DNA from: Eledone cirrhosa
Lineage: Eukaryota
DNA length: 64,000 bases
Direction of reading: 5' to 3'
Assembly: GCA_964016885.1 (NCBI GenBank)
Contig: OZ024748.1
Coordinates: forward strand, 59,396,001-59,460,000
Positions 11,205 through 60,280 of this stretch are shown here, in pieces; positions within the stretch are counted from its first letter, which is position 1, and each line of letters opens with the position of its first letter. The position numbers and the translations under genes were made by a program. The notes under the pieces are model-generated. The model had not been told where the DNA came from, ran no database searches, and was given only the letters and a program-made list of their open reading frames with translations.

Positions 11205-11410
11205 AATGGTAAACAGAAATAACAATACAATTGGTACAGTATATAGAAGGAATATATTAGGTTAACGCCTAAAATAGCAGGAAGATGGTCTTAATGTTTT
11301 GGATGTTAGTCCTTCATCAGAAGAAAGAATAAAAAATTAGAAAGATTGAAAGGACGGGCGGGGTGGAATTGGAAAAAATGTTTTTAGAGAAAAATAACAG
11401 GTCCATTCAT
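11205..11410 (-). mobile_element. Penelope-like terminal-repeat fragment with a decayed hammerhead
   Basis: Reverse complement matches 39575-39781; reads tcttCTGATGAaggactaacatccAAAAcattaaga. Confidence 0.7.
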
Positions 11411-11631
11411 ATATATATATATATATACACACACACATTATAATCAAAGTGTGTATACATTTTTTAGGACACCCTGTATATATATATATATAGATATATA
11501 TATATTTTATTTTTCAAGCCTGGGACTTATTTTAATGATCTCTTTTTGTCAAACTGTTAAGTTACAAGACATATACAACAAAGTAAATGGAGACACATCC
11601 ACACATTGTGTGTGTGTGTAAGTGTGTGTGT

Positions 11632-12128
11632 AAAGAACTAAAGAATAAGTTCTGACTATGGAAACAGAACTTGGAATCAAAAGGTCTGAAAGTAAATTTA
11701 GCCAAAACTAAATTACTAGAAAGTAGGAAAGATACTAGGACACTGATTCCCTCAGGGAAGTGGCCCTGTTCAATATGTAGAAAAGGAGTAGGCATAAACT
11801 ATATACAATACACACTATGTAAATCTTGGATACACAAGAGATGTAGTGGGATAACAGGTTATCTAATAGGAAAGGAAGGCTTTGTATGTAGAAGATGTAC
11901 AGGAGTAATTGAAGGGAAGAGAGTCAGTGATATAAACCTTTTCCAATACCATAAAGATTCCATAGAACTGGTTGATAGCTTCTGCTATCTAGGCAAGTTA
12001 ATTAGCAGCAGAGGAGGGTGTTCTGAGAGCATAATAGTTAGAATAATGTTAGGATGAAAGAAGTTTAGAAAGCTACTCCCACTGTTGACAACAAAAGGTT
12101 TCTCACTGCATACAAAAGGACGACTGTG
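11632..12128 (+). pseudogene. RTE LINE RT 3' part with an inserted PHD-like zinc finger, decayed
   Basis: LESKGLKVNLAKTK...WPCSICRKGVG...CKSWIHKRCSGI...FVCRRC...VDSFCYLG...G*KKFRKLLPLLT; in-frame stops. Confidence 0.9.
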
Positions 12129-12210
12129 TGTGAAGTGCAATGCTGCATGCTTTAACCCTTTCATCAGTGTATGCACTATTGTTAACGTTTCTATCCATTT
12201 TTCCATAAAT

Positions 12211-12325
12211 GGCACGTGACCCTGTGGCTAGGGTGTTGGCTCGCAATCATAATGTCATGGGTTCAATTCCTGGACCAGGCAATGTGTTGTGTTCCTCACT
12301 AAAATAGTTTATTTTGCATTGATCC
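12211..12325 (+). mobile_element. Old CORE-SINE head
   Basis: ggcacgtgaccctgtggctagg...gggttcaattcc...tgtgttgtgttcct. Confidence 0.6.
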
Positions 12326-12594
12326 TGGTGTGTTATGGTGTGGTGTGGTGTGGTGTGGTGTGTTATGTTATGGTACAGTGTGGTGTGGTGTGGTATGGTG
12401 TGGTGTGTTATGTTATGGTACAGTGTAGTGTGGTATGGTCCCATGACTCTTGATGAAGTTGTAGGGCACCATAATGGCATACAGCATTGATTTGGTATTT
12501 TAAAGCCTGGTGGAGCCCATCCCTCTCCAAGTCTGAACACAGCAGATTTCTTCCAGAAAAAGACAAAAAGTGAGAGAAAGGAAGTGAGGAAGAA

Positions 12595-12748
12595 TTGACC
12601 CCAGTACAAGACTGGTACTTTTTTTTTATCAACTATGTAAGGATGAAAAATAAAATTGACCTTGGCGGGATTTGAATTCAGAGCGCCGAAATGAATACCA
12701 CAAAGCATTCTATCCAACAGTCTAACAACACAGCCAATTTGTTGGCTT
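12595..12748 (-). mobile_element. Degenerate Meta-domain SINE
   Basis: ctggtacttt...ggatgaaa...gaccttggcgggatttgaattcaga. Confidence 0.7.
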
Positions 12749-12914
12749 TAAGATATTAAGTAGACTGAAACTGTGTGGAAGCCTGCTAGGTAGCTTGTAC
12801 CATTGAAAGGAGTAGTTTTGTCAGATAGACTGGTATACTGAGTCTCAGCTAGAATGTTGTACAACTTACATGGAGAAGTATACTGTTGATTTGTTGCTGT
12901 TGTTATTTGCCTGA

Positions 12915-13665
12915 TCAAGGATTAGTTTCGAAGGCCCACCACAGGAGGTTGACAAACTTGGGCTCTGGACTAACCAAGTCCTTAATAGACCCAAGTCATC
13001 AGCTCCATGACATAGCTGAGGATTCTCAGTTACTAGACCAGTACTGCTTGAGGTCACACCACCCTTTCTCTCATCATGCAGCAAATTTGCATAATTCAAA
13101 TTTCAACATGCTTTAGACACGTGAGAGTTAGCTGGCAACATACATCTTGACAAGCCAAATTGAATGTCAACCCCAATACAGCCCTCCAACTTGTCACTGA
13201 CTTCTTACAGAGGGAATGGGTGTCCATGAATTGGCTACACACAGGTGTCGGCCGATTCAATGCAGCCATGCACCAATGAGAGCTGTGACCATCAGCAGCT
13301 TACTAGTGTGGCTTACCCAAGCAGACTGCTGAACATATACTGAGTGAGTGCCTGTTTCTCCACCCACCTGAGAGTGTGGGTCTCACAGACCCTAATCCCA
13401 CTACCATCAGCTGGTTGCAGTGACTGGGGAATGTGACGTGGTGAATGCCTGAATCTCCACCTACCTGAAAGTATGGCCCTCGACTCACATGCTCTAATCC
13501 CATTACCGTAAGCTGGTTGCAGCGTCTGGGGATGTCACATGTTGAGAGCTCAGACATCCACCCACCTCAAAGTGTGGCCCTCAACTCATACACCCAAATC
13601 CCACTACTGTCAGCTGGTTGCAGCACCTAGGCGATGTCATGTGATTGCTGCCTCATATGAAACTA
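12915..13665 (+). pseudogene. Decayed Ingi/RTEX-like non-LTR retrotransposon, ORF2 C-terminus and 3' end
   Basis: DPSHQLH...LRSHHPF (ORF 12886), then REWVSMNWLHTGVGRFNAAMHQ*EL*PSAAY*CGLPKQTAEHILSEC, the W..LNRLRTG...C.CG...QT..HI..C zinc-knuckle region. Clade assignment is uncertain. Confidence 0.75.
13344..13645. repeat. Three tandem copies (~97-101 bp) of the LINE ORF end
   Basis: tccaccYacct-aaagtgtgg...aatcccaYtacc-tcagctggttgcag; units start at ~13344, 13441 and 13542. Confidence 0.85.
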
Positions 13666-13974
13666 CTATTGAGAGTTAGATTTTAGTTTATCTGGGGTGG
13701 TTATTGTTAAGTCTCCAGCTCAACAGGTCTATGATAATAAACATTCCAGCTTATTCAGCATCATAGATTAGTTCAATCAAAGCTGACCTCAGGACTTAAC
13801 AATAACCACCTCAGATCAAGTAAAATCTAAGCCACAATAGCAATATCCATAAAGGTATTTCTTAACTTATACACTTATTTGCTGAAGCTCAGATCATTTA
13901 TCACTTGATACCAACCTAGCCAAAATTGGCTCTGGTTCTATAAGATAAAACTACCCACTTTACAAAGTTTCTAT

Positions 13975-58895: not shown

Positions 58896-59056
58896 ACTGG
58901 GTGCTACTATGGTGCTCAGCAATACAGAAACTCACTGATAAGTGATAAATATGTATCAAGAAGTCAGGATGACTCACAGTGCTTTTATTTCATATTCAAA
59001 ATACTACTGGAGTGTGTGGATGAGGGTATATGTAGCTATACACTAATATATATATA

Positions 59057-59157
59057 TGTGTGTGTGTGTGTGTGTGTGTGTGTGTGTGTGTGTGTGTGTG
59101 TGTGTGTGTGTGTGTGTGTGTGTGTGTGTGTGTGTGTGTGTGTGTGTGTGTGTGTGT
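59057..59157. repeat. (TG)~50 microsatellite
   Basis: Seen directly. Confidence 0.97.
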
Positions 59158-59266
59158 ATATGATACTAGTAATGAAAATAATGAAAACAAGCATCAAGCA
59201 TACATATTTATTTATAATATATTATATATTTGTTGGTGTGTTGTGGGTATATATATATATATATAT

Positions 59267-59603
59267 ATGGCTTAGTGGTTAGAGCATTGGCCTTGCAATC
59301 GAAAGGTTGTGAGTTCAATTATCAGACCAGGTGATGTGTTGTTTCCTTGAGCAAGACACTTTATTTCACATTGCTCCAGTTTACTCAGCTGTAGAAATGA
59401 GATGATAGGGACTGGGGTCCCTATTATTCCACTGCAAAGTAGTCGTGGAGGTGCCACGGCAAAAAAGCACCCATCACTCACTGTAAATGAGGTTGGTGTT
59501 AGGAAGGGCATCCAGCTGTAGAAATCAAGCCAGAATCAGTTCCCGTCAAACCCTTGCAAGCAGGGAAAAGCGGACGTAAAATGAAATGATGATGAAATGA
59601 TGA
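59267..59603 (+). mobile_element. CORE-SINE type A
   Basis: tggcttagtggttagagc...gcggacgtaaaatg. Confidence 0.9.
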
Positions 59604-59757
59604 TTAAAATACAAATATTAATAAAATAGATGTTCTTTTGATCAATTAAATTTTATTATACATATTTCAGAGGTACAACAGTACGTCCTCATCAGACAAA
59701 ATATAATGATACATGACATACCCTTAGATGTTAAATGGTTAAGATTTAATCAAGGTA
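59604..59757 (-). mobile_element. Single arm of the 23414-23723 hammerhead-bearing element
   Basis: Near-identical to 23416-23570. Confidence 0.85.
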
Positions 59758-59889
59758 TATAAAATTATATATATATATATATATATATATATATATATAT
59801 ATATATATATATATATAATCGTCCTCCACCTCATCATCATCATCATCTAACATCCGCTTTCTCTGCTAGTAAGGGTTGGTCTATATATA

Positions 59890-60023
59890 TAGAGTGGGTA
59901 ATAGGAAAATGTTTGGCCCCGACGGCAGAGCTCAAGCCATTTCGACAGCTATGTCCAGAAATAGCCGTCGAAACGGCTTGAGCTCTGCCGTCGGGGTCAA
60001 ACATTTTCCTATTACCCTCTCTA
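59890..60023. repeat. Fold-back palindrome with ~64-bp arms, containing a half hammerhead
   Basis: gggtaataggaaaatgtttggccccgacggcagagctcaagcc and its reverse complement; GAAA-CGGC-ttgagctct-GCCG-TC. Confidence 0.85.
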
Positions 60024-60093
60024 CTACGTATAAATATATATATATAGATACACACACATACAAGCACATACACACAAACATATATATATCTTT

Positions 60094-60280
60094 ATTATAT
60101 ATAGAAATGACTGCTATAGGACTAGAACTGTTTTATTTGAATGATGATTTCATACGAATGAAACAGTTTTAGTCCTGTAGAAGTCATTTCTATATATAAT
60201 GAAGATACCTATACTCTATCAATGTATTGAGTACTTTTCTCAACTATAGTTCACCCCAACACAATTCAGGAACCAACAGA
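60094..60280. mobile_element. Fold-back Penelope-like element of the 26157 family
   Basis: Palindrome 60094-60200; tgatgatttcatacgaatgaaacagttttagtcctgtag. Confidence 0.7.

Follow-up and report, generated by a model that had tools for sequence, protein, structure and literature searches.

Minimal hammerhead ribozymes (min-HHR) have been described in the pseudo-long terminal repeats (pLTRs) of metazoan Penelope-like elements (PLEs), with single truncated copies and opposite-strand pairs among them (Cervera & de la Pena 2014, PMC4209133), and solo and head-to-head pLTR hammerheads are already in print (2014, 2021). In vitro work on the Poseidon element PAc of Anolis (Frangieh et al. 2024, PMC11167929) has revealed that reverse transcription begins at two internal sites, which account for the tail, that both strands are extended and that insertion proceeds from uncleaved RNA. 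Arkhipova et al. (2013, PMC3846280) attributed palindromes to self-priming on an antisense template, and for animal retrozymes local tandem expansion is favoured with the mechanism left open (Li et al. 2026, 10.64898/2026.07.22.740005); PMC2377424 and the review PMC6765202 give further background. Here we analyse a stretch of 64,000 nucleotides of the Eledone cirrhosa genome (contig OZ024748.1, positions 59,396,001 to 59,460,000; referred to as the window), in which a sequence-only reading had named 13 hammerhead copies in five short repeat families. These copies are very probably hammerhead pLTR stubs of five autonomous PLE families. They likely arose when reverse transcription copied just the 5' end of the uncleaved element RNA and the product was inserted in (TA)n, and the lone copies are probably catalytically silent. 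The window itself is known biology; its use lies in scale and in the insertion signature.

We scanned the window with a descriptor requiring CTGANGA, a stem II of at least 3 bp, GAAA, a palindromic or hairpin stem III, UH and a stem I of at least 4 bp. Nine complete minimal type-I hammerheads were found, compared with none in each of 50 local dinucleotide shuffles; the core nucleotide C3 of these motifs, with strand, lies at 23047+, 23508-, 23629+, 26212-, 29792-, 39667+, 42593+, 49819- and 59695-. A stricter descriptor (stem III of at most 12 nt), which misses family D, yielded eight motifs against a mean of 0.02 over 100 shuffles. All 13 copies named earlier are present and their grouping holds. 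By C3 position the families are A (23508-, 23629+, 59695-), B (23047+), C (11320-, 39667+, 49819-), D (21501+, 26212-, 32374+, 60142+) and E (29792-, 42593+), and the variation of loop II that had been described inside family D (CTTC, TAAA, ATAC) was borne out, with further variants. Four of the 13 copies are broken: GAAA has become AAAA in 11320-, 21501+ ends within stem III, 32374+ lacks the 5' arm of stem I, and 60142+ lacks C3 at an inverted junction. No head-to-tail array occurs among the 13. The copies are listed below, with clade names following the motif-based assignment given further on.

11209..11410, minus strand: family C (Neptune-type pLTR) copy; hammerhead 11324-11289, GAAA mutated, predicted dead
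19214..19273, minus strand: family C 3' fragment without hammerhead, additional to the 13 copies
21415..21533, both strands: family D (Hydra-clade pLTR) two-armed stub; plus arm with C3 at 21501, ending in stem III
22922..23150, plus strand: family B (Hydra-clade pLTR) copy; complete hammerhead 23039-23101, inverted tail piece 22922-22978
23313..23722, both strands: family A (Hydra-clade pLTR) head-to-head palindrome; complete hammerheads 23513-23465 (minus) and 23624-23672 (plus); tail of ~105 nt on the left arm only; 311-nt core 96% paired in the predicted fold
26145..26345, both strands: family D palindrome; complete hammerhead on the minus strand (C3 26212, weak stem I), core of the plus arm mutated (CTGATTA)
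29648..29832, minus strand: family E (pLTR of a Neptune-type ORF) solo copy in a (TA)-rich array; complete hammerhead 29797-29759
32372..32503, plus strand: family D solo copy; core and stems II and III intact, 5' arm of stem I missing
39480..39780, plus strand: family C copy, 5'-truncated, start approximate; complete hammerhead 39663-39698
42552..42740, plus strand: family E solo copy beginning at the inferred transcription start; complete hammerhead 42588-42626
49745..49845, minus strand: older family C copy; hammerhead 49823-49788 complete but decayed
59604..59758, minus strand: family A solo copy; complete hammerhead 59702-59650
60080..60290, both strands: family D (ATAC-loop subfamily) two-armed stub; plus arm without C3

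The sequence-only reading had held that the families come with no transposon open reading frame (ORF). For PLE ORFs in the window this stands, as tblastn with eight PLE ORF pieces gave no match there, but the window does hold unrelated transposon fragments, for example an RVT_1 match at 43004-43444, and the families themselves are linked to ORFs elsewhere in the genome. We searched the genome with each family (40 scored candidates per search). In every family longer copies continue into a PLE ORF, and an inverted pLTR often stands at the opposite end:

Family A with PLE ORF: loci L154, L156, L168 and L169; ORF piece 1.5-1.8 kb upstream, on the same strand
Family B with PLE ORF: loci L160-L162
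Family C with PLE ORF: loci L173, L177 and L178
Family D with PLE ORF: loci L179 and L180
Family E with PLE ORF: loci L151, L152, L153 and L170

These loci show linkage and not frequency, because they were picked for common upstream sequence or nearby inverted copies. In family D an intact ORF of 714 aa begins 175 nt after the core nucleotide C3, directly behind the pLTR (L333:439-2583; G000:C3:377612439-377614583). Pfam matches, all below the curated cut-off, were RVT_1 in families E and C and GIY-YIG in family C, and Atlas neighbours of the family D ORF (0.96-0.99) carry HTH_animal, GIY-YIG or RVT_1; a PDB sequence search with this ORF returned nothing meaningful. The motifs of the Hydra clade (RW(K-like), DKT, CxCX5C, CxxC and CxH) were recognized by eye against section 11 and the alignments of Craig 2021 (PMC8557442), all of them in the D ORF and parts in the A and B fragments. 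Families C and E carry, again by eye, the Neptune motifs DKG and a CX2-5CxxC linker together with Neptune-like RT4 and endonuclease regions. By these motifs, A, B and D would belong to the Hydra clade and C and E would be Neptune-type. Judged from sequence, each of the five families is the pLTR of an autonomous PLE with reverse transcriptase (RT) and GIY-YIG elsewhere in the genome. The search for linkage to RT and GIY-YIG ORFs that the sequence-only reading proposed was thus successful in all five families. Its description of ORF-less hammerhead retroelements was right about minimal type-I hammerheads with a palindromic stem III of the PLE kind and about a large, diverse population, and wrong about the absence of ORFs.

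Stem III is palindromic in all five families, with predicted self-duplex energies of -1.7 to -12.8 kcal/mol; the lowest value belongs to family D, whose stem III is an interrupted 16-nt palindrome. Positions 10.1/11.1 hold U.U rather than G10.1-C11.1 in 98 of 99 family D copies and likewise in family E. We considered this as a new core variant and rejected it, since U.U at these positions is present in File S2 of Craig 2021 (PMC8557442), in Hydra-1/2_aJap, Hydra-1_cRog and several Penelope_HM. At L151:5270-7874 a Neptune-type ORF of family E stands together with a hammerhead of the U.U type, such as is tabulated for Hydra elements; an exchange of ribozymes between clades in this family is possible.

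Covariation was tested in the A/B group and in family D. For family D the alignment was restricted to copies whose core was spaced as expected (99 of 124 D-like copies), a filter that favours the core; in this alignment, column constancy was 90-100% for the core and stems II and III, 65-89% for loop II and 53-97% for the 3' flank. One pair of stem I switches from A-U to C-G between subfamilies. In family D, 14 cells were changed on both sides, compared with 6.4 after shuffling (reached in 0/500 shuffles, which ignore relatedness), and in the A/B group 37 cells compared with 13.6 (0/500, with the same proviso), where five stem-II pairs showed double changes. Stem II of the A/B group varies in length with pairing retained (33 of 66 distinct copies aligned). 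By these measures, in cells and in score, the stems covary across the subfamilies of A/B and of D.

We mapped the 5' ends of copies with queries taken from 3' of the cut site, giving positions relative to C3. In family D (n=30), 17 copies begin at -9..+1, seven farther upstream and five inside or after the core, and one was not extendable; none begins at the cut site (+39±3). In family E (39 of 40 matches), 22 begin at -47..-39, 11 farther upstream, two at -28/-24 and four at +28. TATA boxes lie at -36 (D), -75 (E) and -95 (A), which is 30-34 nt before the 5'-end peaks. A splice acceptor as the cause of the fixed 5' ends was dropped, the TATA spacing being the more plausible account. Apparent truncations in family B at -11/-8 and +25..+36 proved to be divergence of subfamilies from the reference. 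Because short copies mostly start 30-34 nt past the TATA box, upstream of the cut site, the templates of the stubs were likely uncleaved RNAs. On this view the stubs would represent the 5' portion of RNA that had not been cleaved, in agreement with Frangieh 2024 (PMC11167929). A search of sequencing runs with the family D element gave no RNA dataset among the matches listed.

At the other end, each of the three families A, E and D has two fixed 3' sites (A, +94 and +199; E, +153 and about +192; D, about +49-66 and +129). An adjacent inverted 5' copy with an optional tail was found in families A, B, D and E, and in two-armed copies one arm ended at each 3' site in 23/23 cases in D, 11/13 in A and 6/9 in E. 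That 0/23 long arms in family D had a long partner is not a matter of chance, because unselected arms were 20 long and 20 short, though the query selected one long arm.

The linkage to RT and GIY-YIG, the anatomy of the motifs, their covariation, the copy density and the fixed ends on both the 5' and the 3' side were observed directly; from them we infer a mechanism. Transcription would start 6-64 nt 5' of the hammerhead core, driven by a Pol II promoter that lies within the pLTR (CCAAT/TATA/initiator (Inr)-like). (TA)n DNA would be nicked by the PLE protein, and reverse transcription would begin internally at one of two fixed sites 3' of the hammerhead, the span between which would be the known tail. 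On reaching the 5' end of the RNA it would leave a stub of 130-300 bp. If both target strands were primed, one per site, the two cDNAs could be joined through microhomology close to the 5' end of the RNA, giving a head-to-head palindrome. Selection would act on the ribozyme within the master elements; there it may function as a dimer through the palindromic stem III and/or with the PLE protein.

A further family, young and outside the window, bears on the priming step. At L265:5969-8038 (G000:C9:15005969-15008038), identical 311-bp hammerhead units stand in tandem with head-to-head arms. A genome search gave 337 matches from the best 40 of 131 candidates, with 150 listed at ~100% identity, and head-to-head double arrays also occur on C1, C3, C4, C5, C8, C10, C12, C18, C27 and C28, with arms of up to ~16 units. 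The family falls under the definition of a retrozyme (tandem AT-rich units of 150-450 bp, each with a type-I hammerhead); its ribozyme resembles that of family D, and its 10-kb locus holds no PLE ORF. The outer ends of the arrays lie at unit positions 160-161 (170 in one case) and 195-198, one each, in TA-rich flanks (7/7 arrays). Among eight junctions (the seven arrays and an older one in L304), the inner ends differ between the arms in all eight, overlap by 2-6 nt in seven, and coincide with the cut site at none of 16 ends. The differing inner ends disfavour fold-back synthesis and, together with the two-site outer ends, argue for two independently primed cDNAs. The arrays bear the PLE tail signature. 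The template would have been a circle, a long multimeric transcript being possible as well, and the arrays suggest that PLE enzymes may prime both target strands and may also mobilise retrozymes.

We lean, by a modest margin of belief, towards a general scheme in which PLE integration would be double-primed: the strands of (TA)n would be primed one per internal start site and the cDNAs joined head to head. A linear RNA would thereby give palindromic stubs centred on the transcription start. On a small circle made by the hammerhead, the same enzyme would travel round repeatedly, and a single event would produce two arrays facing head to head, of the kind displayed by the 311-bp retrozyme now spreading in this genome. 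If true, double priming would be direct genomic evidence that animal retrozymes are mobilised by PLE machinery, and this in a genome whose hammerhead load is among the densest reported. Two questions that the literature names as open, the origin of the inverted repeats and tails of PLEs and the identity of the enzyme mobilising animal retrozymes, are touched by the fixed, discordant arm ends. An intact Hydra-clade ORF beside its pLTR and 100%-identical 311-bp arrays in one genome make both testable in vitro in a PAc-type assay. We also observed dispersed relatives of the 311-bp unit at 66-79% identity (L177:1370-1560, L199:540-900, L103:1725-2014 and L286:2205-2269), some with a UUGAUAA (U3-A8) hammerhead core; they are possibly pLTRs of another PLE family.

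Several observations weigh against the pLTR-stub interpretation or its parts. Pfam searches of the A, B and D ORFs gave nothing significant, nor did BLASTP of the family D ORF against the family E RT, and the clade assignment rests on motifs read by eye rather than on a tree. An inverted arm was present in 0/30 family C copies. The number of pairs with double changes was not above that in shuffles (444/500 and 369/500), as opposed to cells and score (exceeded in 0/500), and copies in the covariation alignments had been picked with motif anchors. As to 5' ends, the family A sample was biased by the query, family B has a TCACT motif and no canonical TATA, with broadly spread ends, and family C ends are mostly scattered truncation. 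Of 39 family E copies, four begin at +28, adjoining the cut site (+29). An internal deletion accounts for one of them and two others form a tandem duplicate, leaving two independent events. A copy-start peak at the cut site was not seen in D and is doubtful in E. In a pattern search of family E over +24..+37, ~35 loci among 100 of 148 matches listed were spread throughout by eye; a slight surplus at +30/+31 can be put down to T microhomology and slack in the pattern.

To estimate abundance, we sampled 99 evenly spaced 10-kb segments (0.99 Mb) of the 3.0-Gb, microsatellite-rich genome. The sample held 53 intact motifs in 35 segments (54 per Mb), against 0-1 in three shuffles, which extrapolates to ~160,000 intact motifs per genome (bootstrap 109,000-218,000). 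The largest printed count that we found is 120,000 retrozyme copies in axolotl (in the part of PMC7229834 used here), which the estimate exceeds. BLAST copies in the sample numbered 36 for D, 26 for B, 17 for C, two for E and one for A. At 141 per Mb, the window has ~2.6 times the sample mean. Core variants with U3-A8 were absent from the window and numbered three in the sample compared with 0-1 after shuffling. Density was 73 per Mb on smaller contigs and 38 per Mb on C1-C4, and by eye ~ten additional hammerhead families occur past the five (L191-L289).

The best-surviving alternative is that the five families are independent ORF-less hammerhead retroelements, that is, retrozymes or masters resembling short interspersed elements, whose short or circular RNAs use PLE enzymes in trans. 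We consider this improbable. Most copies are indeed short and free of ORFs with fixed ends, the 311-bp family is a precedent of a tandem hammerhead family with no PLE ORF nearby and a ribozyme like that of D, and B and D comprise many subfamilies, with the ORF traced for some only. However, each family runs into a PLE ORF at several loci, head-to-tail arrays are lacking among the 13 window copies, and stubs beginning at the inferred start would carry no promoter, because the upstream TATA box is excluded. The label of retrozyme, raised earlier for the window families, fails on the same linkage and lack of arrays.

Considerably less credible, in our view very unlikely, is that the motifs were retained or co-opted to self-cleave host (intronic) transcripts, as the sequence-only reading had envisaged. 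The nine intact motifs in 64 kb, a density above that of the sample, and the preservation of the core in young copies would fit this idea, but copies decay, with the core damaged in 4/13. The predicted probability of the monomeric active fold is only 2.6e-7 to 0.01. An inverted arm lies over the core in 22/30 D, 13/30 A and 9/30 E copies (0/30 in C), and since read-through RNA contains both arms, the motif of a palindromic copy would pair with its own antisense arm and be buried in a long hairpin. No host exon was identified in the 33 of 59 candidate frames scanned, and the in vitro activity of such motifs is described as low (PMC4209133) or protein-assisted (PMC11167929). Low predicted folding, inverted arms and the lack of an identified host exon make cleavage of host RNA by the window copies unlikely. 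If transcribed, 23412-23722 and 26145-26300 are predicted to form near-perfect RNA hairpins of ~50-150 bp, and such palindromic-stub hairpins may be candidate substrates for adenosine-to-inosine editing or small interfering RNAs. Finally, chance matches in AT-rich repetitive DNA, a reading that the short, AT-rich stems and the absence of a hammerhead family among the 150 of 206 Rfam matches listed for the window might invite, are scarcely conceivable and already refuted, given nine motifs against none in 50 window shuffles, 53 against 0-1 in those of the sample, and compensatory stem changes.

Other features of the window deserve brief mention. A CTGACGA pair at 43909- and 53935- was rejected as hammerhead: it sits within a 725-bp repeat (43584-44307 and 53611-54333, 94% identical, no Pfam match) resembling a transposase fragment, which we take to be of Tc1/mariner type. 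A near-perfect palindrome of ~140 bp between TA tracts (59886-60026), which recurs beside many PLE stubs at other loci, is possibly another palindromic stub or a miniature inverted-repeat transposable element. At 63131-63181 lies the 5' half of a U6 small nuclear RNA (Rfam 35 bits, under the gathering score), probably a pseudogene or chimera. The family E copy at 29648..29832 is contained in a 3.9-kb TA-rich array (27122-31016; 3.6% GC in 28001-30000).

We found no paper devoted to a census of cephalopod hammerheads or to head-to-head retrozyme arrays, and the families may be catalogued in supplements or Repbase; the term 'hammerhead' was not found in the portion of PMC13282606 searched. Compared with the min-HHR of PMC4209133, the motifs described here are alike in being of type I with a short stem I and a palindromic stem III, in forming many consensus families, in an extra base after A9 (here in family C), and in occurring mostly as single truncated copies with opposite-strand pairs 100-700 bp apart. 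They differ in number, an estimated 160,000 (54 per Mb) here against about 2,000-9,000 per genome there, and in the U.U of families D and E at 10.1/11.1, where that paper, in the part cited, describes a G-C pair.

Families A, B and D share with Hydra clade PLEs, including Hydra-1_Obim (Craig et al. 2021, PMC8557442), the RW, DKT, CxCX5C, CxxC and CxH motifs, a short ORF (714 aa here), (TA)n targets and a canonical hammerhead. In contrast, few Hydra families are reported outside cnidarians there and three are abundant here, none of A, B and D matches the Hydra-1_oBim hammerhead row, and in A and B the ORF and the pLTR lie 1.5-1.8 kb apart. With the Neptune clade (Craig 2021 Figs S1, S2), C and E share DKG, AMG..FAP.YAN/MGP.YAN in RT4, a CxxxxCxxC linker and CxxC inside GIY-YIG; unlike it, family E joins its Neptune-type ORF to a U.U hammerhead listed for Hydra elements.

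Animal non-LTR retrozymes (PMC7229834; 10.64898/2026.07.22.740005) resemble these families in the type-I hammerhead and the short, AT-rich, non-coding unit. The 311-bp family fits their tandem definition, whereas the five window families are non-tandem and ORF-linked; term searches of the main texts of both papers found no description of head-to-head double arrays with PLE tail ends. Further parallels are PAc (PMC11167929) and the Penelope elements of Adineta (PMC3846280). The portions of these two papers used here contain no description of insertions with one arm per start site, and tails in this genome measure about 35-105 nt; what is shared with them comprises two internal start sites of reverse transcription (the tail), AT-rich targets, an uncleaved template, an inverted 5' pLTR, and a TATA box with a TCACT Inr-like motif in the pLTR.

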